A DNA stretch of 64,000 nt from Bradymonadia bacterium (lineage in GTDB: Bacteria > Myxococcota_A > Bradymonadia > UBA7976 > UBA1532). Under the pieces are notes generated by a model. That model ran no database searches. It had not been told where the DNA came from and saw only the letters and a list, made by a program, of their open reading frames with translations. This document shows positions 38,793-53,061 of the stretch, in pieces. A program made the translations under genes and the position numbers. Numbering within the stretch: position 1 is the stretch's first letter; each line of letters opens with the position of its first letter. The stretch spans positions 320,001 through 384,000 of the forward strand of contig JBKAGE010000035.1 of assembly GCA_046290225.1 (NCBI GenBank), written 5' to 3'.

Positions 38793-38859
38793 GCGACACC
38801 CAGGCGCTCCAGTCCTCACATTCGCTCCATTCAATCGAACCGTCATGAGGGGGAAGCTC

Positions 38860-41361
38860 ATGTGTCGCGGTCATCTCAAGCGTTGGGGGCGTTTTTTGCC
38901 TGCAGCGCTCTGCTTGCTTTTGCCAAGCATCGCCCTGGGTGAAGACGCACCCAAACCCATCACCCAAGAGACCATTGATGGCCTGCAAGGGAACATGAAC
39001 CATGTGTGGACGATGGTGTCCGCAGCGCTGGTGTTCCTGATGCAGTGCGGGTTCCTGTTCATCGAAGCAGGGATGGTGCGGTCGAAGAACGCCATCAACG
39101 TGGCGCAGAAGAACATCGCCGACATGTTGCTGTCGGTGGTCATGTTCTGCCTCGTGGGCTTCATGTTCATGTTCGGCAGCAGCGCCGGCGGTCTCATCGG
39201 CATCGAGGGCAAACTCTTCGCTCTCGATGGCATGGATGACTGGGGCTTTACCTTCTTCGTGTTCCAGGCAGTGTTCTGCGGAACTGCAGCGACCATCGTG
39301 TCAGGTGCTGTGGCAGAGCGCATGAAGTTCGGTGGCTACCTGGTGGTCTCGGTGGTGGTCTCGGTGCTCATTTACCCGGTCTTCGGTCACTGGGCGTGGG
39401 GCAACCTGCTCGACAGCAACAACACGGCCTGGCTGGCTGACATCGGTTTCCTCGACTTCGCAGGCTCCACGGTGGTGCACAGCGTCGGTGGCTGGGTCGC
39501 CCTTGCCATGGTCGTCATCCTCGGCCCCCGCGTCGGTCGCTTCGACGAAGAGGGCAACCCCGTGCGCATTCACGGCCACAGCTCCGTCCTCGCCACCATG
39601 GGCGCACTCATCCTCTGGATCGGCTGGATCGGCTTCAATGGTGGCTCCACGACCACCGGTGACTCCAGCTTTGCCCCCATCGTGGCCAACACCCTCATCG
39701 CCGGCGCCTTTGGCGGCTCTGTATGCATGATGATCGGCCGATACCAGGACGGTCACTATCGGCCGGACCGGTCGATCAACGGTCTGCTCGGTGGCCTCGT
39801 GGGCATCACCGCTGGCTGTAATGCAGTGTCGATTCCCTCTTCGATGGTGATCGGTACTGTGGGTGGCCTGGTGGCGTACTACGGGGCTGAGCTGCTCGAG
39901 CGCAAGTTCAAGCTCGACGACGCTGTGGGTGCTGTGCCCGTACACGGTATGGCTGGTATGTGGGGCACCATCGCCGTGGGCATCTTCGCCCCCGCTGATC
40001 AGCTCGCAGCCGGCGGTCGCTTCGAGCAGATCGCTGTTCAGGCTGGTGGGGCTCTGTTGGCCTTCGTGTGGGCTTTCGGTCTCGGGTATGTGGTGTTCAA
40101 GGCCTTCGACGTCTTCGTGGAGCGGATGCGTGTGTCCACGGAGGACGAGCTCGCTGGTCTCAACCAGATCGAGCACGGGGCGACGCTGGGTACGGGTCAC
40201 CTGCTCAAGCGCATGACCGAACTCTCTTATGGTGAAGGCGACATCAGCATGCGCTTGTCGGAGGACAGCAACGACGAGGCCGGCGAGCTGGGCTTTGCCT
40301 TCAACCGCGTCATGGACAACATCGAGCACCTCGTCCGCACCGTGGCCACTGAAGGTCAGCTGCTGAGCATCTCCGCCGAGAAGATGTCTCGGGTCTCCCA
40401 GAGCCTGTCGGAGCAATCCGAAGCGGCGGTGAGCGAAGCGAGCCGTGCGAAGGGACGGGCGTCTTCAGCGAACGAGGCTTCAGGCCAGGCTGCAGGCTCG
40501 CTGGATTCGGCGAAGCAAAGCGCCACGTCGATCGCAGAGCGTTCGGGACACCTGGCGGGTGCGGTGCATCAGGCGACGAGTGGGGTGCAGACCATCGAGC
40601 ACGAGATTCACAGCATCCAGGACACCACCGCTCAGGTCAGGCGCGTCATCGAAGAGGCCCTCGACCAGAGCACCGCTGCCAAGACCAACGTCAATCAGCT
40701 CAGCTCTGCCATCGATTCCATCTCCGGCATCCTCACCATGATCGAGCAGGTCTCCAACAAGACCCGCATGCTCGCCCTCAACGCCACCATCGAGGCCGCA
40801 CGAGCCGGTGAGGCAGGCCGAGGCTTTGCCGTGGTGGCAGAGGAGGTCAAGGAGCTCGCTGATCAGACCGCCAAGGCCGTGGACGACATCCGCGGGAAGG
40901 TTTCGGGTGTGGTCGATGAGGCGAACCATACGGTGACCATCATCGAGGCCATCACCCACACCACCGAGCAGATGGGCTCCGCTGTGGCTCAGATCGCCGA
41001 CTCCGTGGAGGCCCAGAGCCAGTCTGCATCAACCATCGTCTCGCAGATCAACCAGGCCAACGACGAGACCAACGCCGTGGCCAGCCAGATCCGCACTGTG
41101 AGCACCGATGTCGCCCAGTCTTCTGAGAAAGCACTCTCTGCGGCCCACGACACCCTCAGCGTCATGAACGACATCGAGAGTGTGGAGAACGTGGCCCGCC
41201 AGAACCTCGAGCAGGCCCAGGAGGTCATGATGACCTCACAAGAAGTTGCTGAAGTGGCTCACCGCCTCACCCAGCTCATCGCACGCCTCACCGACGTGCA
41301 GAGCGTGTATCGCGAGGCTCAGCAAGTCATCAACATGGGCGGAACAACCGCCCATTTCTGA
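38860..41361 (+). CDS. Ammonium transporter (Amt) fused to HAMP and methyl-accepting chemotaxis signalling domain
   Basis: [119 protein letters not shown]. Confidence 0.93.
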
Positions 41362-41480: not shown

Positions 41481-41933
41481 TCAAGTGCTCTGCCGCTGCA
41501 CGCGATTGCGTATGCGCCGTGCCAGCCCGCCGATCACCGAGACAGCCACAGCATCATAGCGGCCTTGGCGCATCACCCTGCCCTGGCGGCGGAGCGTGAT
41601 CACTCGCCCCAAGATTTGGTGGGCCTCGAACCAACCATCGATGGTCGGCAACGCGTCGCCTTTGACACACACGCGTCCGCCGGGCAGGGCGCAAATCACG
41701 CGGTGGACGATGCCCAGCTCACCGACGTCGAGCAGTACGACTTCACCTAACTTCGGGGGCGCGCTCAAGGGCGCGATGGTGACCTGATCGCCATGACGCA
41801 GATAGGGGCGCATCGAGGCGCCGAGGGCGGTAAAGGTAAAAGGCTGGCCGCGACTCAACGCCTCGCGGGCCATCTCGGCAGCAGCGGTCTGGAGGGCGGG
41901 ATCATCCCGAGTGCTGACAGGTGATCGAATCAC
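41481..41933 (-). CDS. S24/S26 family peptidase (Ser-His type)
   Basis: GASMRP.L..GD, IVHRV, VKGDA, ILGRV; GTG start overlaps the radical SAM stop (GTGA). Confidence 0.8.
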   Translation of the reverse strand: MIRSPVSTRDDPALQTAAAEMAREALSRGQPFTFTALGASMRPYLRHGDQVTIAPLSAPPKLGEVVLLDVGELGIVHRVICALPGGRVCVKGDALPTIDGWFEAHQILGRVITLRRQGRVMRQGRYDAVAVSVIGGLARRIRNRVQRQST

Positions 41934-43171
41934 CGGGCCCGGGGCTCGCCGATCTGCACCAGGGAGACACCATCGTCGCCTCGAGGGCGCAGGCGATGGC
42001 CCGGGCGAGCCATGCCGTGTCGCCGAGCAGCCCACTGACGCTCGGCGAAGGTGGGCCGAGATGCGAAGAGCTCACCTTCGTCGCCGGGGGCCGGCACCGG
42101 CTCGTCGGTCTCGTTGAGGCGGTCCATGTAATCCATGGCAGCCATGGTCAGATGGGTACGCTCGCAGACATAGGCGCTGCGACGATCAGCCTGCTCGGTT
42201 TCGGCGTGGGAGATGCCCGGGCAGTAACCGCACTTGCCGTGGAATCCGCAGCCCTCGCAGTCCTGCAGATAGTTCGCCCGCTTCAGCTCCCGCTGCTTCT
42301 TCACCGTGGGGTGATGCCACCAGAGCTCGGCGAAGCTGTGCTCTCGCAGACCCCCGATGGGCTCCCGCCAGTTGATGCAGGGGTAGAGCTCGCCATCAGG
42401 GGAGATGTAGCCCGCGGTGTGGGCCGCCGAGCAGGTGTTCCCCGAGCTGGGCACGTCGGGCATCTCGTGGGCGGGCCTGATCTCGTCGCGACGACTCTCC
42501 ATGCCCTTCATCACCGCGAGGATACGCTCCGGGTGAGTGAGACCGATGCCCGTGAGGGCGAAGTCGGACTGATCGTCGGGCATGATGTGGCCGTCGATGA
42601 CCCACTCACAATCGTACGTTTTGGCGATGGCCTCGACGGTGTGCCAGTCGGTCCGGTTGTGCACCATGACCGGTGTCTTGAGCTGCACCTTCACCCCACG
42701 CTCTCTGAGGCGGCGGGCGGCGTCGATGGTCTTCTGATGACTGCCGGGAATCCGCGTCACCGCCTCGTGGGCTTCGGGGCCGCCGGAATACAGCGACATG
42801 GCCACGCACGACACCCCCATGTCGGCGAGATCATCGGCGAGGGCATCGTCGATGAAGTTGCCGTGGGTGATGATCTTCACGTCGAACTGACGATCCCGGG
42901 CGGCCCGCAGCACCTTGGCGGCGTCGGGCCTCAGGAAGAGATCACCCCCGCTGAACAACAAGAACATGCACCCGGCTTCGGCGAGCTGGTCGAGCACGTC
43001 GACGCACTCGTCATAGGTCAGCTCGTGCTTGCGCCGATCAGTGAGATAGCAGTGCACGCACTTGTGATCGCAGCGCCAGGTGATGTCCCAGTGGATGCGC
43101 ACGGGGATGTTCAGGTCATAGGCCTGCTTGAAGATATCTGGCGGTACGCCTTCAGCGCCGCAGGCAGCCAT
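41930..43171 (-). CDS. Radical SAM/SPASM domain enzyme (peptide maturase type)
   Basis: CDHKCVHC (CX3CX2C), FSGGD; SPASM C...G-x4-C...CEGC-x5-C-x2-C...C; AAGGAGG RBS. Confidence 0.92.
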   Translation of the reverse strand: MAACGAEGVPPDIFKQAYDLNIPVRIHWDITWRCDHKCVHCYLTDRRKHELTYDECVDVLDQLAEAGCMFLLFSGGDLFLRPDAAKVLRAARDRQFDVKIITHGNFIDDALADDLADMGVSCVAMSLYSGGPEAHEAVTRIPGSHQKTIDAARRLRERGVKVQLKTPVMVHNRTDWHTVEAIAKTYDCEWVIDGHIMPDDQSDFALTGIGLTHPERILAVMKGMESRRDEIRPAHEMPDVPSSGNTCSAAHTAGYISPDGELYPCINWREPIGGLREHSFAELWWHHPTVKKQRELKRANYLQDCEGCGFHGKCGYCPGISHAETEQADRRSAYVCERTHLTMAAMDYMDRLNETDEPVPAPGDEGELFASRPTFAERQWAARRHGMARPGHRLRPRGDDGVSLVQIGEPRAR

Positions 43172-44085
43172 GGGCCCTCCTTGGGGAACTCCAGCCGTAT
43201 GGGGTCGACCCGCGAGACGAGATCACAGGCCAGCCCAAATGCAGCCCCCCGAGTTGCGGGGGCGTTGTCGTAGACTGTCACACAGCGCAACAGCCAGGCC
43301 ACAGCCTCGTCGTCGGCGAGGGGACCGAGGGCCACCTGGGTGGCCTTCACCGGCCGGGTCATCACCGCGATGGGCGCCCCTCTGGGGTTCAAAGGCAATG
43401 TGCGCCCCTGACTCCAGAAGGGTGTACCCCAGGCGATGTAGCCCGCCCCGTCTCCCCGTGGTCTCACCGCCACGATCTCGTCGGCGAGCACGTGATCGAA
43501 GCCCGCCTCTCGAGCGATGGTGCTTTTGCCCGTGCCCGAAGGCCCGGGGTTGAGCCACGCGTGGCCATCGACCACACCTGCTGATCCGTGAATCAGGCCG
43601 CCGCCTTCTCGAAGCAGCAGCGCGCTCAACACCAGCTGGACCACCGCCCAGATCTCACCCCGACTGCCATCCATCCAGGTCACCCCGGTGGTGCCGTCGG
43701 CGCTCAGCTCGAGGCGTACATCCTCTCGCCAGTAGCAAAACTGCGTGCCGTCTATGGAGTTGGAGTCGCCAGCAGCTGTTCGAGTCTCACCAAGTGTGTG
43801 ATTTGAGCTGTTTTTCTGGCTCAGAGCTTCACCCATGGGGACCGGCCAGCACTCGACGACGCGCACCTCCACACAACAGGTCAAGGGCACACAGTGCAGG
43901 GCTCCATGAGATGAATACGCCTGTGCACCCTCTCCGACAGCTTCGGCAAGACCGTTGCCTGACTCAACAAAACAATCGAGGGCCTCGGCACCGAGGGGGG
44001 TGCCGAAGAAGATGTCCGTGAGGCCTTCACCATAGAGGGTGAGAGCGACACCGGCGATGTGGAGGGTGATGGATGTGGGGGGCAA
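43111..44085 (-). CDS. HprK-related P-loop kinase-like protein
   Basis: IHGSAGV.DG, GPSGTGKST, LADE, AWGTPFW; TTG start 1 nt after the precursor stop (inferred). Confidence 0.78.
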   Translation of the reverse strand: MPPTSITLHIAGVALTLYGEGLTDIFFGTPLGAEALDCFVESGNGLAEAVGEGAQAYSSHGALHCVPLTCCVEVRVVECWPVPMGEALSQKNSSNHTLGETRTAAGDSNSIDGTQFCYWREDVRLELSADGTTGVTWMDGSRGEIWAVVQLVLSALLLREGGGLIHGSAGVVDGHAWLNPGPSGTGKSTIAREAGFDHVLADEIVAVRPRGDGAGYIAWGTPFWSQGRTLPLNPRGAPIAVMTRPVKATQVALGPLADDEAVAWLLRCVTVYDNAPATRGAAFGLACDLVSRVDPIRLEFPKEGPWLPAALKAYRQISSSRPMT

Positions 44086-44086
44086 C

Positions 44087-44290
44087 TCAGGACTGCAGGT
44101 TGCAGCCAAAGGGGGGCGGGCCGGGGGTGATGTTGAGGGCGCCACACGACAGGGCCGCGCGCTCGAAGACTACGCTGGTGACGAAGCCAGGCTTCTCGTA
44201 GGCCCGACGGGTCTCGGGGGTGCCGAGATCATCGTCGTGCTGGATCTCGTGATCCTGTTCGAATTCGGGCTGACGCTGCTCGTCGCTCAT
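44087..44290 (-). CDS. Putative RiPP precursor peptide (67 aa)
   Basis: GAGAGGAG RBS; acidic N-terminus, RRAYEKP (YxxP), VFERAALSCG...C; lies between the giant gene and the kinase. Confidence 0.78.
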   Translation of the reverse strand: MSDEQRQPEFEQDHEIQHDDDLGTPETRRAYEKPGFVTSVVFERAALSCGALNITPGPPPFGCNLQS

Positions 44291-44314
44291 GTGTTCGCTC
44301 CTCTCAGGAAGACC

Positions 44315-47300
44315 TTAGTAGAAGATCACCACCCGTAGGGTACCACCGGGCTCTTTATATACGATGCCGAAGTCTGCGTAACCGGTGGCATCGCCGTCAA
44401 AGTTCCCCAGGCCAGCGACCCCGATCTTGTGTCGGGCGGGGCTCGACAGGGTGAAGTCGACGCCGCGAGGCGTCTCCACCGCGTCGGTCCCGAACATACC
44501 GCTGCCGTCGTTGAAGTACACCCACGCGTCGAGATCGGGGTTGTCGATGTAGTTGTTGTGGCTCACCACCAGGTCCACGAAGCCGTCGGCGTTGATGTCG
44601 CCGGCGAGGTCGAAGATGGCGCCGTAGTTCTGCACACCGCGGCCGAAGCAGTCGGTGCTGTTCTGATCCTCGTCCCAGACCGACAAGCGACGTGAGACGC
44701 GATCGCCGACGACGAAGTCACCGCCGCCGTTGGCGTCACCGGTCAGATCGGCCCCACCGACGATGGAGCTGCCGAAGCTGCTCTGCGCTGCAGGACAGGG
44801 ATTGGCGAGGGCGAACGTTGTGGTCTCTGCAACGTTGTAGGCGTAGTTCTCGGGCAGATCGTTGGCGCCGTAGAAGACGTACACCCCAGTCCAGTTGGTG
44901 GGGGAGTCGCCCACGCTCACGGCGACATCGTCGAGACCGTCGTTGTTGAGATCACCCACCGTCGAGGACGAGGCGCCCATGTTCTGAGCCCCCGTTACCG
45001 AGATACGGGTGATGCCGTTGCCTGCGTCGAAGGCGGTGGCGTCAATGGTGGCGGGCCACGCTCCACGGCCAGCGATGACGAAGGCCTCGTCACCGGCCCG
45101 ACCGTCGAAGGCGCTGGAGCCGCCGATGAGGATGTCGTTGTAGGTCACCCCAGCCACCGTGTCGGCGTTGAGCTGGTTGAAGTTGCCCGCAGCGCCCACC
45201 CAGGTGATGTAGCGGCCGGGCACGGTGATCACAGAGTCCACCGTGGCCAGCTCCACAGGATCCGCCGAGCCAAAGTACACACCCACCGTACCGCCGAAGC
45301 CCACGGCGAAGTCCACACCGGTGATGGCGAAGTCGTCGAGACCGTCACCATTGATGTCGCCGAGACCAGTGGTCTGCAGGCCGTACTGGATCACGGGTAC
45401 GGCGCCCACGGTGGCGACGTCGAGCTCCACCGTGGAGATGCCCGCAGGATCAGCGGCACCGAGGACGATGGCGGTCTGGCTGAACTCGAAGGCGAAGGAG
45501 CCGTCGTACTGCACAGCACCCACCAACGCATCACCCCGACCATCGCCGTTCACGTCGCCCACGCTGGTGAGCAACGAAGCGGTGTTCAGGAAGTTGTCGT
45601 TGTCCCAGGCGACGTCGTTGCGGGGCGTCAGCTCCACAACAGCCTGGTTCAAAGTGACGTCCACCTCGATATTGGCCAGGTCACCCATACGGCCCACGTC
45701 GTCCATGGCACGCACGGCCACCTGATGCACCCCGTTGAGGGGGAGCAGGGCGTCGAGGGTGATGCTCTCCGCAGCGCCCGCATCAGCGGTGGCGGCGAAG
45801 GTGCCCAGATCAGTGGCTACATCCCAGGCGCCCTCGTCGGCGATGGCGGCAGCGGCATAGCGCACGGCGTACTGAGACACGCGGTCACCACCGGCGCCGT
45901 CATCACCAGGGGCGGTGAAGTTCAGCTGCACCGTGGGACGGCGGGGGTGAGTGACGGCTGCGGCGAGATCCCCAATGGCCGCAGGGGCCTCGGGGTCGAT
46001 GTTCACGTTCCGCGTGGTGCAGGCCTCGTTGCTGGCGGCGTCGCTCACACAGACCCGCAGCGCCACAGCGCCTGCAGGCACGGTCACACCGGCGAAGGTC
46101 ACGTTGGAGGGGTTCGCAGCGTTCACGGCCACGGGGCCCGCAGTCTGAATGCCGTTCACCTCGAGGTTGGCGGTCCGGTTGCTGCCATCGGTGGCCTCGT
46201 TCACCTGAGCCACGATGGTGATCTGCTGACCGGGGGTGCCGGCATCGTCGTCAGTGAGCACAGCGGCGCCGTCGGCGGGGCTGGTGACGCTCACCTGAGG
46301 GGCCTCGATGTCCACCAAGATGGACTGACCCAGCGACAGGGTGTCGTTGCCGTCGAGGCTGGCCCGCAGCTGCAGGATCGAATCCCCCGCAGGCAGCGCC
46401 ACGTCGGCGAAGCTCACGAAGCCGCCGTTCACAGCCACAGGGCCAGCGATGACCTGGCCATCCGCGAGCAGGTTTACGTCGGCGTTGAGGCAGTTGGGAT
46501 CAAAGAGGTCCACGGCACCCTCGACGGTGCGCACCAGGGTGTTGCCCTGCACATTGCCGTCTGCGGGGCCGAGGATGGCCGGCGCGCCGACGATGCCCTG
46601 GATCTGGCTGAAGCAGCCGTCGATCTCCACCTGTACGTTCACCGGCGTCGAGGCCCCAGGGTTACCGCAGGCGTCTTCGACGCGTGCCACGAGGTCGAGG
46701 CTGCCCGGGGGCAGGGTGAAGGTGGTGTTGATGGCGCCGTTGAGACCTGCAGGCACATCGAGCTGGGCCGGGGTGGTGGTGATCTGCTGCTCACCGTTGA
46801 ACACCCGGATGATCTGCCCCGCCTCGATGGCGTTGCGATCGGCGAAGTCGAGCGAAGCAGCCACCTGGAAGCCGTCGGCGGCGTTGCCGTTCGCGTCGTC
46901 GTCCGCGGTGAAGCTGCTCTGGTCAGCAGGGCTGGCGATGAGCGGCTCCGGCGCCTGCGTGTCGACCTCGAAGGGGATGGCGTTCACGGTGGCGGCGTTG
47001 CCACAATCATCGGCCACGGTGACCTCGACGTTGTAGACGCCATCGGCCACGGTGAAGTTCGGGAAGGTCATCAGACCACCACCGGACTGAGCGTTGATGG
47101 CGTTGCCGCCGTCGATGGTCAACGTGCCGTCGAGGGTCTCGCCAGCCTCACCACCAGGGGTCACCTGCAGCGCGTACTGGAAGGCGTCCTCTGCATCGCC
47201 ATCGGCAGCAGCGTTGAGGCAGCTGTTCGCCGCGAGGTTCACCACAGCGGGGGTGGGCACCACGGTGTTGATGCGCACCGCCTGATCGACGAGCTCGGGG

Positions 47301-50300
47301 GTGCCGAGGGCCGGCAGCAGGTTGCCGGCCTCGTCTGCGCCCGTGACGTAGAGCGTGTACTGACCGGGATCGAGCTCCACAGGAATGCTCACCGAGCCGT
47401 TGGACACCGTACCGCTGCCGAGCAGCGCCTCGGCCCCAGCCTGGCGTACGCGCACCGCACGGCCGTCTTCCATGCCGTCCACCGCCACAGTGACCGAGAA
47501 CTGGGCTCGATCCCCTGCAGAGGCGGCGTTGGTCCGCTCGCCGCGGTTCACACAGGCATCGGCGTTGGCATCTTGATCGATGGTGATGGTCTCCACCGTC
47601 GGCGCGCTGCAGTCTGCCACCACCGTGATGGGATCAGAGACCACCCGCTGACCGAAGACCCCCACCACGGTGAGGGTGTGGGTGCCGTTCCCCAGGTTGA
47701 GGGGGCACTCGAAGACCTCGGCAGAGTTGCCCTGAATCGCGCAGGCACCGTTGAGGGCCGACGACTGACCGTCGCAGGCAGCAGGACCGTCGCCCTGAGC
47801 GAAGTTGGTGCACACGTAGAATTCGGCATCAGCGCCAAGGCCACGGGTCTGACCGAGCAGGTTCAGCTGGCAACCCTCGACCTCGGGCTGAGCGTCCTCG
47901 TTCACCAGGACCGTAGAGCCGTCGCCGGGCGCGTTCACCACGATGGCAGCGCCGGGATCGACCACGAAGTCCACCGGGGTCTGGGTCTGGTTGCCACAGG
48001 TGTCGGAGACCGTAGCGGTGAAGCTGAGATCGCCGAGGGGCATGGTGTAGCGGTCGAGAGAGACCTGGCTGCACTCGCCAGCGCCCACCACCCGGGTCAG
48101 GGGCTCGTCACCCACGAGGGCATCAGGGTTGCTGGTGAAGGCGATGGTCTGACCCGCGGCGCCACAGACGTTCACGCGGGGCGTCACCTGGATACCGGCG
48201 GCATCAGGCACGTCGCGGAGGTCTTCGTCGTCGAAGTCGTTGAGGGTCTGACCAGGCGTAGGCTTGAGGAAGCCCACGAGGGGGGCCACCCGATCCACCT
48301 GAACCGCCGCCTGATCGTTCACGCTCTGGCCCGCAGCGTCGGCCACCGAAGCGACCATCGTGCAGTTGGCCTCGTCGGGCAGCGACAGGGGCTGGAAGTC
48401 GATGAAGCCCAGGTTGTCGACGGTGCCCGTCACCGAGATCGGCTCGCCACCATCACAGGTGGCCTCGAGCGTGGCCACCTGACCAGTATCGACGCGCTCG
48501 GTGATGGCGGTCACCGCGAACTGGAAGCCGGGCTCGGCGCTGGCGTCGGCTACCTGGCCGTTCACGCAGTCACCAAAGGCAGGCAGCTCGATGCTCGGGG
48601 GCACGAGGCGAATCGCCACAGTGATTTGCGGCCCTGCAGAGGTGCCGTCGTCGAGGCGGCCCTGCATGTTGAAGGTGTACTCCGACTCGGCGTCGGGCGG
48701 CACCGTCACCGTCACCGGGAACGACACGTTGCCGTCAGCGTCGACAGCGCGAGCGGGCAACACAGTCTCCTGCTCACCCTCGGTGACGATGAGCTCCACC
48801 CGAGCACCCTCGGGCAGGTTGGAGTCGATGTTGGCCGTAAGCTGGAAGCCTTCGACCTCCGGGTTCAAGTCTGCACCGAGGGCGAGGCTGCTGCCATCGG
48901 CGGGATCGACGATCTGAATACGAGGCGTACCGCACACCGCGGTCACCGTGGTCTCGACCGTCGTCTCGTTGCCCGCGCAGTCCTGAGCCCGCATCGAGAA
49001 GGTGTTCTCACCATCGAGCAAGGTCTCGCTCATGGTGGTGGCCACCCCATCGACGACGGCGGCGCAGCGCTCGGCGGCGCCGTTGAGGCGATAGCACACC
49101 TCGGCGACGTTGGGATCGACCACCGCCAACTCGAAGCCGGTCTGGATGCAGTCGGAGAGATCGCCATTGTCATCGTCACCGATGAGCAGGACCGAGCCAG
49201 GTGCCGGACTCTGCAGGCTCACCTCGGGATCAGTCGTATCCACGGTGAAGGCGATGGGCTCGACAGGATCGATGGGCACAGCGTTGCCACCGATGATGGT
49301 GCCGGCCACAGCCACCGTGTAGTCACCCTCGGGCAACACATCAGTGCCCTCGTCGACGCCGAGGCGGATCGACCAGGCCTCGTTGCCGCCGGCGATCAGA
49401 TCGAGGGTCTCGCTGTCACCGCCACCGGCAGGGGTGAAGGTGGCGGTGAAGGCCGCCTGATTCTCGGCGAGGTTCTGACCGCTGCCGCCCACGAAGACCT
49501 GCCCGTCTGCAAAGCACTGGCTCGCGTTGGGGCTGGTGACTTGGAACGAAGGCGTGTCGAGGACCACGAAGTAATCCTGAGGCACCTCCTGGGTGCCCGC
49601 AGGGTTCGGCGAAGCATCGGCGGTGGCGCGGCAACCGAGGCTGCCAGCGTCGGCGCCGCGGAAGGTGGCCACCACGTTGGCGCCGCCATCAACCAGATCA
49701 GAGCGACGGATGCGATCACCCGGCAAGGTGAAGCGGCTGCTGTAGTTCTGGTTGGGGCGACGACATTCGATGTAGATGTCGTAATCGACCTCAGCGGGCC
49801 GATCGTCCACCACGGTGATGGCCATGGGCACCTGGATGCCCTCATCCTCGGCGGCATCACCAGGGCGAGCATCATTCGCGGTCGTGAAGACCGAGCCACC
49901 TGCAGGGCTCACCAGCCGGATGTCGGGCTGAGTGGAGTCGAAGCAGACCTCGTACTCCACCGAGGTGTTGTTGCCGCAGTCGTCTGCAGCGGTGAGGGTC
50001 AGGGTGCGGCCGCACACATAACCCGCCACCTCCACAGGGATGCTGAAGGCGCCCTCGGCACCCACAGTAAAGTCACCATTGCGGAAGCTGGGCAACGCAG
50101 GCTCGAAGGCCGCGGTGATGTTGGCACCCTCAGGCAGCCCTTCCACGGTGCCTGTGAAGGTCACCCGCATACCGCCTTCGGGCAGCGCCTCACCGTCAGC
50201 GACGGCGAGCACGTTCTCTCGGAGGGGGCTGAGCTGGTCAGAGTTGATGACCGGGGCGCTGGCATCGACATTGTAGGTGATCTCGGCGGCTTCACCGGCG

Positions 50301-51343
50301 AGGCCCGACTGCGTGCTGCCCTGGGCCGAGACCGTGTTGGCCCCCTCGTTCAGGGTGATGAGGGCCGAAGCCGTGCCATCGACGACGTCGATGCCGGGCT
50401 GAGCCTCACCATTCACCATGAAGACCACCCGGCCACAGGTGCTCGAAGCCTGCACGTTCACCTGTACCCCGTCGATGTCGGGATCAGCATCGGCGGTGGC
50501 GTCGAAGTCACAGACCCCCTCAGTGGGCTCGGGGCTCAGGGTCACCGCACATGCGGTGACGTCTACGGTGACCGAGGCCTCGGCGATGACGCGCTCACCC
50601 TCCACAGTCTCTGCAGAGGCGATGAGGGCCACAGCGGTCTCGGCATCACCGGTGATCGGCAGGGCCACATTCTCAAAGGTGGCGTTGCCGTCAGCCAGCT
50701 CAGCGGTCCCTGCAGGGGCCCCGGCGATGGTCAGCTCCACCGTACCTGCAGGGAGATTCTCCGCAGCGACGGTGATGTTGGTCTGCAGACCGTTGTCGAG
50801 GGTGCCATCGAGATCGTCAGCGGCGGTGAACACCGTCTGATCTGCGGGGTTGGCGAAGGCCAGAGTCGGCGTGGGATTCGCCGGCACACATGCTGGATCC
50901 TCAGCATCAAAGCTGGTGTTTACGCTGACTGTAGCCGTGCTCACGACCGCGTCATCGCGCACGAGCTCCGCCACAAGGTTCACACCATCCTGCACCGGCA
51001 GGGGGAATCCTCCGAAGAGCACCCGGCCCGATGCGGGCACGGGCTGCGTCACCGGCTCGGCGTCGCCCTCGGAGATGCTCAACCGCAGCTGCAGGCCCTC
51101 GTTGGAGGCCCCTGAAAGGCGCACCAGCAGCGACACGTTGTATTCGATCGTGTCCTGGGTCTCGAGGTTCTGGTCGTCGGCGCAGGTGATGGCCTGACCA
51201 TTGGTCTCGGGGGTGACGAACTGCGCTTGGAGGCCGTTGCCTCCACTGCTGCTGCCCCCACCGTCATCACAGGCGCCGAGGCCCGCTGTCGCCGCCGCCA
51301 TCCATGCGAGCGGCTGCCAGTATCGTGACTGGAATCTCTTCAT
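44315..51343 (-). CDS. Giant (2342 aa) surface lipoprotein: Ig-like/Big repeats, FN3-like domain, C-terminal FG-GAP repeats
   Basis: LGAC lipobox; at least 11 P.DG...D.D...G.Q repeat motifs; FTAPGDD...Y.VRY; GDVNGDG, GDINGDG, GDLNNDG, GDINADG, GNFDGD. Confidence 0.88.
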   Translation of the reverse strand: MKRFQSRYWQPLAWMAAATAGLGACDDGGGSSSGGNGLQAQFVTPETNGQAITCADDQNLETQDTIEYNVSLLVRLSGASNEGLQLRLSISEGDAEPVTQPVPASGRVLFGGFPLPVQDGVNLVAELVRDDAVVSTATVSVNTSFDAEDPACVPANPTPTLAFANPADQTVFTAADDLDGTLDNGLQTNITVAAENLPAGTVELTIAGAPAGTAELADGNATFENVALPITGDAETAVALIASAETVEGERVIAEASVTVDVTACAVTLSPEPTEGVCDFDATADADPDIDGVQVNVQASSTCGRVVFMVNGEAQPGIDVVDGTASALITLNEGANTVSAQGSTQSGLAGEAAEITYNVDASAPVINSDQLSPLRENVLAVADGEALPEGGMRVTFTGTVEGLPEGANITAAFEPALPSFRNGDFTVGAEGAFSIPVEVAGYVCGRTLTLTAADDCGNNTSVEYEVCFDSTQPDIRLVSPAGGSVFTTANDARPGDAAEDEGIQVPMAITVVDDRPAEVDYDIYIECRRPNQNYSSRFTLPGDRIRRSDLVDGGANVVATFRGADAGSLGCRATADASPNPAGTQEVPQDYFVVLDTPSFQVTSPNASQCFADGQVFVGGSGQNLAENQAAFTATFTPAGGGDSETLDLIAGGNEAWSIRLGVDEGTDVLPEGDYTVAVAGTIIGGNAVPIDPVEPIAFTVDTTDPEVSLQSPAPGSVLLIGDDDNGDLSDCIQTGFELAVVDPNVAEVCYRLNGAAERCAAVVDGVATTMSETLLDGENTFSMRAQDCAGNETTVETTVTAVCGTPRIQIVDPADGSSLALGADLNPEVEGFQLTANIDSNLPEGARVELIVTEGEQETVLPARAVDADGNVSFPVTVTVPPDAESEYTFNMQGRLDDGTSAGPQITVAIRLVPPSIELPAFGDCVNGQVADASAEPGFQFAVTAITERVDTGQVATLEATCDGGEPISVTGTVDNLGFIDFQPLSLPDEANCTMVASVADAAGQSVNDQAAVQVDRVAPLVGFLKPTPGQTLNDFDDEDLRDVPDAAGIQVTPRVNVCGAAGQTIAFTSNPDALVGDEPLTRVVGAGECSQVSLDRYTMPLGDLSFTATVSDTCGNQTQTPVDFVVDPGAAIVVNAPGDGSTVLVNEDAQPEVEGCQLNLLGQTRGLGADAEFYVCTNFAQGDGPAACDGQSSALNGACAIQGNSAEVFECPLNLGNGTHTLTVVGVFGQRVVSDPITVVADCSAPTVETITIDQDANADACVNRGERTNAASAGDRAQFSVTVAVDGMEDGRAVRVRQAGAEALLGSGTVSNGSVSIPVELDPGQYTLYVTGADEAGNLLPALGTPELVDQAVRINTVVPTPAVVNLAANSCLNAAADGDAEDAFQYALQVTPGGEAGETLDGTLTIDGGNAINAQSGGGLMTFPNFTVADGVYNVEVTVADDCGNAATVNAIPFEVDTQAPEPLIASPADQSSFTADDDANGNAADGFQVAASLDFADRNAIEAGQIIRVFNGEQQITTTPAQLDVPAGLNGAINTTFTLPPGSLDLVARVEDACGNPGASTPVNVQVEIDGCFSQIQGIVGAPAILGPADGNVQGNTLVRTVEGAVDLFDPNCLNADVNLLADGQVIAGPVAVNGGFVSFADVALPAGDSILQLRASLDGNDTLSLGQSILVDIEAPQVSVTSPADGAAVLTDDDAGTPGQQITIVAQVNEATDGSNRTANLEVNGIQTAGPVAVNAANPSNVTFAGVTVPAGAVALRVCVSDAASNEACTTRNVNIDPEAPAAIGDLAAAVTHPRRPTVQLNFTAPGDDGAGGDRVSQYAVRYAAAAIADEGAWDVATDLGTFAATADAGAAESITLDALLPLNGVHQVAVRAMDDVGRMGDLANIEVDVTLNQAVVELTPRNDVAWDNDNFLNTASLLTSVGDVNGDGRGDALVGAVQYDGSFAFEFSQTAIVLGAADPAGISTVELDVATVGAVPVIQYGLQTTGLGDINGDGLDDFAITGVDFAVGFGGTVGVYFGSADPVELATVDSVITVPGRYITWVGAAGNFNQLNADTVAGVTYNDILIGGSSAFDGRAGDEAFVIAGRGAWPATIDATAFDAGNGITRISVTGAQNMGASSSTVGDLNNDGLDDVAVSVGDSPTNWTGVYVFYGANDLPENYAYNVAETTTFALANPCPAAQSSFGSSIVGGADLTGDANGGGDFVVGDRVSRRLSVWDEDQNSTDCFGRGVQNYGAIFDLAGDINADGFVDLVVSHNNYIDNPDLDAWVYFNDGSGMFGTDAVETPRGVDFTLSSPARHKIGVAGLGNFDGDATGYADFGIVYKEPGGTLRVVIFY

Positions 51344-51553
51344 GGCCGAGCCCTCCGTGCTGCCCTTGCCGTTATCCGGTGGTTGTGCCGGAATGTGTGA
51401 TCGATCCGAAATTACTCAAATGCGTGGCTGTCCAGAGTGGGTCTGGTACGCCTCACCTTTACGGAGCGATGACCCATGGGCTTGACCCAGTTTGAAGATT
51501 TGCACGGTAACCCTTTTAGATAACTCAAGAACCACATTTACCCCCATCAACCT

Positions 51554-51841
51554 TCACTGAAAGTCGATGAAGCGACGTGTCTGCAGTTCTAAGAGAAAAT
51601 CTTCCACATCCTTGCGTGCAGTTTGCTGATCAATGGCAAACTCTTTCACAACCAGCTCGATGATTTCGCGCACGGTGTTCTTTTTATCTGTAATCAAATT
51701 CCAGACAAAGGTGCCGACACCATTGAGCCGATGGATCGAGTCATCGCTGGCATCGAGCAAAATCGCGCTGCCGGCCATGACTCGAGAGACCGAGGTCTTC
51801 GAAGGAATGGGAACGGCGTTGTGCTGAGGCATGGTCGTCAT
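51554..51841 (-). CDS. PqqD family (RRE) peptide chaperone
   Basis: AILLD....IHRLNGVGTFVWNLI....TVREII..VV.EF.ID..TARKDVEDFLLEL....FI. Confidence 0.85.
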   Translation of the reverse strand: MTTMPQHNAVPIPSKTSVSRVMAGSAILLDASDDSIHRLNGVGTFVWNLITDKKNTVREIIELVVKEFAIDQQTARKDVEDFLLELQTRRFIDFQ

Positions 51842-51996: not shown

Positions 51997-52989
51997 TCAG
52001 CGCCAGCGGCGGCGCCGACGCATCAGGGGGAAGGACAAGAAGACACAGGCCCAGGGGATCCACCGCACGGCCCGCTTGATCCACGGGGAGCGCTTCTTGC
52101 GTCGGCCGGTGGCCGCTTCGGCCTCGGGCACGCACCCGCCGCTGCTGTCGTCATCCCAGCTGTCGTCGTCATCTTCCCAATCATCGCCCTCACAGCCGGC
52201 GCTGTCGTCTGATCCGCTGTCGCTCCAGCTGTCGTCGTCATCTTCCCAGTCGTCGCTGTCGCACCCACCGCCGCTGTCATCGTCGCCCCAGTCGTAGCTG
52301 CCACTGTCCATGGCATCACTGTCGTCATCGTCGTCGTCCCAGCCGTCGTCATCGTCCCAGTCGCTGCTGTCACACCCACCGCTGTCTTCACTCGGAGGCG
52401 GCTCGTACTCGTCTATCCACTCGTCGCTGTCGTCATCGTCATCCCAGTCGCTGCCATCGCAGCCGCCGCTGTCGTCGACCGCCACCACGACTCGACCACC
52501 TGATCGATCCTCAGAGGGTGGGGCGGGTCCTCGCTCCAAGCGCGCAGGTGGATGCAAGAGTCCAGTGAGGTTGATGAACTGCCAGCTGGTCCCGTTGAAG
52601 ATCTCCAGGCTGAGTTCGATGGTGGCGGGGGTGTACTTGTGAAACAGGGTGAGGCTGCTGCCCTGAGCCATCTGAGGATCTTCGAAGGCCCCATCACCGC
52701 TCTCGCGGAAGTCCACCTGAGAGGGCTCAAGCTCCACGGTGCCCTGCTCGAGACGCTCTGCAGGTACGGTCAGGGTGATGTTCACGTCGATATCAGGCTC
52801 TCTCTGATATCTGACGCTCACTGTTCGCAATGTGCCGTATGTATGTGTCTTGACGAAGGCCTGGCTGTGGCCATCTCGACGATGACCTTCGATCTCGGTG
52901 GCCCACACCACATCTGCCGAGCCATCACCGGTCCATGCGACACAAAACGGCAAACAGAGCAGCAGAAGCAAGGTGTGAGCGCGGTGCAT
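51997..52989 (-). CDS. Secreted protein with acidic SGGC-D-x-DW repeats and a MYXO-CTERM-like C-terminal anchor
   Basis: Signal MHRAHTLLLLLCLPFCVA; five G/AGC-Asp/Trp repeats; hydrophobic segment followed by RRRRRWR; GGAGG RBS. Confidence 0.72.
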   Translation of the reverse strand: MHRAHTLLLLLCLPFCVAWTGDGSADVVWATEIEGHRRDGHSQAFVKTHTYGTLRTVSVRYQREPDIDVNITLTVPAERLEQGTVELEPSQVDFRESGDGAFEDPQMAQGSSLTLFHKYTPATIELSLEIFNGTSWQFINLTGLLHPPARLERGPAPPSEDRSGGRVVVAVDDSGGCDGSDWDDDDDSDEWIDEYEPPPSEDSGGCDSSDWDDDDGWDDDDDDSDAMDSGSYDWGDDDSGGGCDSDDWEDDDDSWSDSGSDDSAGCEGDDWEDDDDSWDDDSSGGCVPEAEAATGRRKKRSPWIKRAVRWIPWACVFLSFPLMRRRRRWR

Positions 52990-53061
52990 GTGGGCCTCCG
53001 ATGAATGTGGGCAACATCGGCGCGTCAGAGCGAAGTTGCCGTGGTGTTGCATCGGAGCATC

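Follow-up and report, generated by a model that had tools for sequence, protein, structure and literature searches.

The closest described counterparts of the locus reported here are the clusters for linear polyphosphorylated peptides (LPP), described in 2026 from the lppA-K-B-S-D-N cluster of Paenibacillus alginolyticus (PMC13381572). These clusters lie within capsule loci and encode a recognition element (RRE) for ribosomally made peptides with post-translational modifications (RiPPs), a peptidase resembling signal peptidase I (SpI), an HprK-like kinase, a nucleotidyltransferase (NTP transferase) and an exporter; the LPP precursor is cut after F-E-T (F-3, E-2, T-1) and polyphosphorylated on Ser3. 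The same paper states that the roles of LPPs and of paeninodin-type lasso peptides are unknown. Its main text mentions neither radical S-adenosylmethionine (SAM) enzymes nor Myxococcota, and its supplement holds, among the rows covered, a few Myxococcota SpI homologues that lie outside the LPP cluster. Another entry there is an SpI homologue next to a kinase-RRE fusion in Chondromyces apiculatus DSM 436. Here we describe a six-gene cassette in a 64,000-nucleotide stretch of DNA, hereafter the window, from a Bradymonadia bacterium (GenBank assembly GCA_046290225.1, contig JBKAGE010000035.1, positions 320,001 to 384,000 of the forward strand). We conclude that the cassette genuinely encodes an LPP-like RiPP pathway, so far uncharacterised, that has an additional radical SAM step. 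We propose that its product would be a thioether-bridged phosphopeptide that a capsule-locus enzyme links to sugar and a giant lipoprotein holds at the cell surface, a complete chain to which we assign a probability of roughly 0.4.

The cassette consists of the following features, in window coordinates:

51554..51841, minus strand: discrete PqqD/RRE protein of the lasso/LPP type, 95 aa (PF05402, E 8e-17)
44315..51343, minus strand: giant acidic lipoprotein, 2342 aa, with a lipoprotein signal, an Ig-like stalk and an FG-GAP beta-propeller (Pfam Big_13 and FG-GAP)
44087..44290, minus strand: precursor peptide, 67 aa (conserved columns, purifying selection)
44090..44158, minus strand: predicted 23-residue core, for a cut after F-E-R as in LPP (analogy with PMC13381572, in part, and motif counts in 88 peptides)
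43111..44085, minus strand: kinase-like protein of the HPr kinase/phosphoenolpyruvate (PEP) carboxykinase fold, 324 aa, TTG start (invariant residues and fold match)
41930..43171, minus strand: radical SAM/SPASM enzyme, 413 aa (PF04055 and PF13186)
41481..41933, minus strand: soluble archaeal-type signal-peptidase-like (S26) protease, 150 aa (weak Pfam matches, E 0.002-0.004; Ser-His-Asp)

An earlier note on this window had listed six co-oriented genes (RRE, giant lipoprotein, peptide, kinase, radical SAM/SPASM enzyme, S24/S26 peptidase) with four junction spacings, and both are borne out by the open reading frames (ORFs) and the DNA. From the giant to the peptidase, the genes are separated by 24 and 1 nt and then overlap by 61 and 4 nt, values that are exact for a kinase start at TTG 44085 and a peptidase start at GTG 41933. 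The RRE gene lies 210 nt from the giant, and a promoter/terminator scan of this gap found no promoter-like or terminator-like site above shuffled sequence. Each cassette gene occurs once in the host genome, except for the giant, which has a 647-aa lipoprotein paralogue on contig C40 (L033:9917-11860) that corresponds to its C-terminal part only, at 46% identity, and that lacks cassette genes in its neighbourhood.

The 67-residue peptide carries the landmarks Y31-x-x-P34, F42-E43-R44, L47, Cys49, Cys63 and a C-terminal Ser67, all of which fall among ten columns that are invariant in 18/18 close homologues. The proline and the last cysteine are invariant in all 51 peptide sequences compared. Pooled over 25 sequences, the proportion of nonsynonymous differences (pN) in the peptide gene is 0.33, against 0.66 for synonymous differences (pS), and pN is below pS in 280/300 pairs; the peptide is thus under purifying selection. 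Since the same gene order is also found in relatives, the cassette is not a product of chance. Among 88 peptides from across the phylum, the leader motif [Y/W]xxP is near-invariant (Y/W in 87, P in 87); relative to the predicted cut, position -3 is F, L or Y in 82, position -2 is E in 79 and position +3 is L in 79. Cores are 14-29 aa long with cysteines at both ends: at least two cysteines are present in 83 of the 88 and at least one in every core, and no conserved Trp or other cofactor residue was seen. A serine stands within the last two residues in all 27 peptides from the host's order.

Catalytic residues are intact in all three enzymes. The radical SAM protein has its CxxxCxxC motif and seven SPASM cysteines invariant in 39/39 sequences. 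With seven cysteines, a SPASM domain keeps an iron site open for the thiol of a substrate, CteB being an example. In the kinase, His166 and the Walker A residues G186, K187 and T189 are invariant in 43/43 sequences; it has no Pfam match and reaches only E 0.002 with the ScmC model, and its predicted fold matches PEP carboxykinase and HPr kinase. It is the only RiPP-type HprK-like gene and the only strong family-profile match in the host genome, the other HprK being canonical. In the protease, His77 and Asp93 are invariant and Ser40 is at least 90% conserved (35 sequences), the three being counterparts of the LppS triad S29/H68/D93; the PF10502 match falls below its cut-off (18.9 versus 22.9 bits), and no N-terminal membrane helix was found. 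As for the RRE, its closest solved chains are TbiB1 (E 9e-7) and LppB 9x8z (E 2e-6), and the Asn, Asp and Phe with which LppB grips YxxP appear, by eye, to be aligned in it. The conserved precursor, the intact enzymes and the LPP precedent, studied by experiment, for combining an RRE, a kinase and an SpI-type peptidase lend good support to the view of the earlier note that the locus is a RiPP system, and a RiPP pathway is very probable.

The cassette thus shares with LPP a discrete RRE predicted to read [Y/W]xxP, an SpI-like Ser-His-Asp leader peptidase, an HprK-like kinase, a leader ending in F-E-x and, by way of an NTP transferase, a genomic connection with capsule genes. Set against the LPP leader YxxPxVLxHQxIxFETxxS (PMC13381572, in part), the peptide retains YxxP and FE[R/T/K] but is two residues shorter (Y-to-F spacing 11 instead of 13), has no HQ and carries L rather than S at +3. 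Whereas LPP clusters have no cyclising enzyme, the cassette adds an intact radical SAM/SPASM enzyme and a conserved cysteine, and its operon includes the giant lipoprotein; its NTP transferase lies mostly at another locus, and the MsbA-like exporter is absent. LPP is a patchy system of Bacillota, whereas the cassette belongs to Myxococcota and has been kept vertically.

Phosphorylated lasso peptides are a second point of comparison. The kinases of paeninodin and pseudomycoidin phosphorylate a C-terminal Ser, and PsmN is needed for the addition of hexose on the phosphate (PMC6993621, in part). These systems have in common with the cassette an RRE, an HprK-like kinase, a C-terminal Ser (in the host's order) and a PF14907-type partner tied to hexose addition. 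They differ in that neither a macrolactam cyclase nor a B2 peptidase is among the six genes, so that cyclisation would be carried out by the radical SAM enzyme; no protein in the host genome exceeded the cut-off of the B2 family PF13471. The SynChlorMet likeness raised in the earlier note holds only at a distance. SynChlorMet and GeoRSP (TIGR04248-04251, TIGR04302-04303), themselves uncharacterised, also combine a PqqD-like protein with SPASM radical SAM enzymes, and SynChlorMet has the HprK-like ScmC, but they have two SPASM genes where the cassette has one, and the cassette has an identified precursor, an S26 protease and a giant lipoprotein. Every model cut-off was missed, for SynChlorMet (ScmC 17/125 bits, ScmD 29/100, ScmE 76/400, ScmF 54/400) as well as for GeoRSP (TIGR04302 31/100, TIGR04303 85/400, with five divergent homologues also below), and LPP is the closer precedent. 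We conclude that the cassette falls outside SynChlorMet, GeoRSP, lasso peptides and LPP in the strict sense.

Among solved structures, the radical SAM family profile is closest to the sactisynthase SkfB (E 1e-38) and to PqqE (E 1e-35), which does not by itself settle the chemistry. With sacti- and ranthipeptide systems (SkfB, AlbA, CteB, StsB) the cassette shares an RRE-dependent SPASM radical SAM enzyme and a Cys-bearing precursor; it differs in the placement of cysteines at both ends of the core and in having a kinase and an S26 protease. The enzyme scored below every NCBIfam cut-off tested, including those of AlbA and StsB (best, NirJ2 at 123/500 bits; MftC 94/265; PqqE 77/381), and those of the haem and cofactor enzymes NirJ, AhbC/D, MftC and PqqE were all missed. 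None of six family motifs was found in the 3,421-precursor table of PMC10288494.

The profile's closeness to SkfB, in a phylum that includes predators, raises the possibility of a sactipeptide-type product that diffuses and acts as an antimicrobial or a predation toxin. The distribution of the cassette argues otherwise, being single-copy and near-universal in the host's family rather than patchy, and no conserved exporter or immunity family accompanies it; related phosphorylated lasso peptides also showed no antibacterial activity (PMC6993621, in part). We therefore consider a toxin very unlikely, and nothing was found in favour of predation, as suggested in the earlier note, or of contact-dependent killing.

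Named relatives are metagenome-assembled genomes of Bradymonadia and Myxococcota, and the cassette occurs across the phylum Myxococcota. Within the host's family, a single radical SAM match was obtained in each of 23/24 genomes, the kinase in 26/27 and the peptide in 17/17; in the sister family f2 the corresponding figures are 3/3, 3/3 and 2/2. Related genomes are not independent, and these counts are ranges rather than statistical tests. The near-universal single-copy state fits a housekeeping-like role. With a broader peptide profile, 89 of the 401 genomes of the phylum were matched at E<=0.01, false matches included; weak matches at L082, L084, L089, L096, L100, L101 and L134 were dropped since the cassette is absent around them, although L134 is still included in the count of 38 held-out loci given below. 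A protein search with the peptide profile returned 26 matches, all unnamed or hypothetical. A literature search, with subscription papers outside its coverage, found no earlier description of the cassette or of the combination of a radical SAM enzyme, a kinase and an SpI-type protease in one RiPP pathway.

The giant has a lipobox at Cys25 and a C-terminal FG-GAP beta-propeller at about residues 1893-2342. It is strongly acidic (D+E 13.9%, K+R 3.3%) and contains five DxDGDG-type loops. A model of its last 450 residues has a predicted local distance difference test score (pLDDT) of 93.9, and the best fold matches are integrin alpha heads (TM score about 0.57); a search of the ESM Atlas returned generic FG-GAP clusters only. 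A crude rule called a lipobox in 54/63 complete homologues, and several of the misses show one by eye. An RRx pattern, as expected for twin-arginine (Tat) export, was seen in only 5/54 giants, and that route was rejected.

A giant homologue lies directly upstream of the peptide gene in 69 of 88 other loci. These come from 26 families and show three gene orders, in each of which the junction from giant to peptide is kept. The first set contributed 37 of 50 loci; in the remaining 13, the gene upstream of the peptide is the RRE (7) or another secreted protein (1), the cassette is split (2), or a contig ends there or nearby (3). In the held-out set, found with the peptide profile and not used in building it, the arrangement was present in 32/38, with one more recognised by eye, four lacking it and one false match. 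Two loci picked by the radical SAM enzyme alone also had both giant and peptide. The giant's C-terminus was found in 17/24 genomes of the host's family. The giant is therefore not a one-off insertion. In most relatives its gene immediately precedes that of the peptide, which suggests that the peptide is likely to be part of the cell surface and not an antibiotic, and we lean slightly towards a cell-envelope role exercised together with the lipoprotein.

Two other explanations start from the same adjacency. In the first, the giant incorporates the cross-linked peptide as a small structural subunit, with no involvement of sugars or the capsule locus. The quinohemoprotein amine dehydrogenase (qhp) operon provides a precedent, since its thioether-cross-linked, leader-cleaved small subunit QhpC is encoded with large periplasmic partners and a dedicated exporter (PMC7876137, in part), and it resembles the cassette in joining a small radical-SAM-cross-linked, protease-trimmed polypeptide to large extracytoplasmic proteins. 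The cassette, however, has no haem subunit, Trp-quinone precursor, flavoprotein or ABC exporter, its protease is of another family, its core has no conserved cofactor residue, Pfam found no enzyme domain in the giant, and the peptide persists where the giant has been lost. These differences make a subunit role quite unlikely.

In the second, the enzymes act on the giant itself, either after stop-codon readthrough fuses it to the peptide or by recognising a leader-like stretch of its signal peptide. The window's peptide is in frame with the giant, the giant's signal peptide holds YWQP, and in f2 the RRE travels with the giant. Yet only 20/70 giant-peptide pairs are in frame, where about 23 are expected by chance, none of the loci examined showed a fused ORF, and [YW]xxP precedes the lipobox in just 4/54 giants. 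Both versions were rejected, and action on the giant is extremely unlikely.

The proposed chain continues outside the cassette. The host genome has one nucleotidyltransferase of PF14907, the LppN/PsmN family, at C46:36792-37712. It lies within a capsule locus (C46:27665-40089, L146) alongside wza, wzc, UDP-sugar dehydrogenase, epimerase and glycosyltransferase genes, placed between the epimerase and wza but in the opposite orientation, an arrangement conserved in the family, and this PF14907 gene has no kinase of its own. Orthologues are present in 22/24 genomes of the host's family and 2/3 of f2, and they adjoin capsule genes in 22 of 23 relatives' loci. In a survey of 99 cassette loci, a PF14907 gene abuts the cassette in nine, and one further locus has it at a distance of 2.7 kb; the family profile used here was seeded with five of the cassette-linked copies. 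For 19 further cassette genomes, the best-scoring copy has glycan genes nearby in 14 and a kinase in two. In genome G173 the cassette's missing RRE lies about 2 kb from the PF14907 gene, and in G122 two kinases and an RRE stand beside it, possibly as one locus broken by assembly. The genomic ties of the cassette to the giant and, in trans, to the capsule locus are strong but not obligatory. No exporter, receptor, regulator or immunity family recurs near the cassette in the 99 loci, where the neighbours beyond the cassette genes are housekeeping genes and an ABC ATPase family is present in 4-5; no C39 domain was found in the host genome either, in agreement with the earlier observation that the cluster has no dedicated exporter.

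We envisage the following sequence of events. The RRE would capture YEKP in the leader, as inferred from LPP and paeninodin. The radical SAM enzyme would form a thioether from the last Cys, a bond we consider probable given the invariance of that residue and the seven-Cys SPASM domain. The HprK-type kinase would (poly)phosphorylate a serine, most likely the C-terminal Ser67 and alternatively Ser48 near the cut; by analogy with LPP and paeninodin, phosphorylation of the peptide is highly likely. The Ser-His-Asp protease would then remove the leader in an RRE-dependent manner after F-E-R, following LPP. More speculatively, the capsule-locus nucleotidyltransferase would add a sugar or sugar-phosphate to the phosphopeptide, which might be exported along the polysaccharide route and bound at the cell surface by the integrin-like propeller of the giant. 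A more specific version, in which the phosphopeptide is an envelope linker that the nucleotidyltransferase joins to polysaccharide, that exits with the polymer and that is captured by the giant's head, is unlikely as it stands; if true, capsule or matrix would be tethered to the cell through a RiPP-based bacterial equivalent of the binding between integrin and matrix. The usual reading of RiPPs is as antibiotics, signals or cofactors. An LPP-related pathway that is single-copy throughout a family, spread over a phylum and associated both with a giant integrin-like lipoprotein and, in trans, with a capsule locus offers a concrete, testable hypothesis for why RiPP clusters with a kinase and nucleotidyltransferase adjoin surface-polysaccharide genes.

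Several observations weigh against this chain. The giant is missing from six genomes of the host's family (67-95% complete) that form one clade, supported at 100/99 on the radical SAM tree; five of the six were searched with the giant profile and gave partial FG-GAP matches or none. In this clade the peptide is still near-invariant (pN 0-0.07). We conclude that a single loss removed the giant within the host's family, with the peptide kept, and that the link between giant and cassette is not obligatory. The giant is also not adjacent to the cassette in L029, L088, L114, L132, L136 and L137, and in f2 it is found together with the RRE, with peptide plus kinase and the radical SAM gene on other contigs. 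In a mirror-tree comparison of 37 loci, the co-divergence of core and propeller had a partial r of 0.13, below the 0.19 of the protease. As a genomic association, the surface-protein link put forward in the earlier note is thus upheld against a one-off insertion, and it is weakened by the giant-less cassettes of one family clade and of three further lineages.

These findings fit a further explanation, namely that the modified peptide is a signal or regulator of surface and biofilm states and that the giant is co-regulated with it but never in physical contact. Survival of a conserved peptide after loss of the giant, the splitting of the cassette into three loci in f2 and the lack of any special core-propeller co-divergence would all follow, and cores differ between families, as signals do. 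Co-regulation alone, however, does not require a giant-to-peptide junction kept across three gene orders, and the 99 loci show no recurring receptor, regulator or exporter family beside the cassette. A signalling role is therefore rather unlikely.

The chemistry of the surface-held phosphopeptide has weak points as well. Phylum-wide, the C-terminal residue is Ser in only 44/88 peptides, and although 83/88 have a Ser at one of the final two positions or a Ser/Thr between +1 and +6, five have neither kind of phospho-acceptor. Position -1 is variable (R, T, K, S, P, A), which makes the site of leader cleavage uncertain: by analogy, a cut after F-E-R is most likely, the alternative being just before Cys49, where a small-L-small motif directly precedes the first Cys. 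Such a motif fits a signal-peptidase rule. PF14907 was not found in G011, G022 and G027, and the family is common without the cassette (262/401 phylum genomes; 31/35 in f6 and 27/29 in f10). Deletion of the NTP transferase changed nothing in heterologous LPP expression (PMC13381572, in part). Finally, the peptide is cytoplasmic and must cross the inner membrane, by a route that is only predicted, to meet the lipoprotein.

Variants of the cassette were also encountered. A second radical SAM gene lies upstream of the RRE in L126 and L129, a B12-binding radical SAM gene occurs in L132, and two kinase genes are present in L133, L140 and likewise L138. L136 and L137, from genus g68, have the compact, giant-less order S26-kinase-RRE-radical SAM-peptide, with a PF14907 gene convergent right after the peptide; this is the simplest version of the cassette. 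The kinase gene at L002:9518-10093 (G021) gives matches in more than one reading frame and is frameshifted or mis-assembled.

In the sister family f6, PF14907 forms part of a lasso cluster that has a kinase of its own, and a different FG-GAP surface protein faces 5/7 lasso loci; the seven loci were picked for kinase adjacency and may reflect one ancestral event. These clusters (L172-L178, upstream of rpsL-fus) look undescribed and comprise a cyclase, a YxxPxL precursor, an RRE, a kinase, a B2 peptidase and PF14907, some with an ABC exporter; in five, the cluster stands head-to-head with the FG-GAP gene. The four complete proteins of this kind end in what we take to be a MYXO-CTERM-like tail. 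They were rejected as orthologues of the giant on account of N-terminal repeats, a piecewise profile match and a C-terminal membrane tail.

Next to the cassette in the window, an 838-aa fusion of an ammonium transporter with HAMP and chemoreceptor signalling domains is convergent with it (38845-41361, plus strand). On the other side, a 351-aa secreted protein (51997-53052, minus strand) has Asp/Ser-rich GGCD repeats and a tail with Cys, a hydrophobic stretch and poly-Arg, with no Pfam or NCBIfam matches. Elsewhere in the host genome, at C36:435417-444732 (L147), a second PqqD-family gene directly follows two large Ig-repeat proteins and is itself followed by ATP-grasp, pyridoxal phosphate (PLP) decarboxylase-like and urea-transporter/M23 fusion genes.

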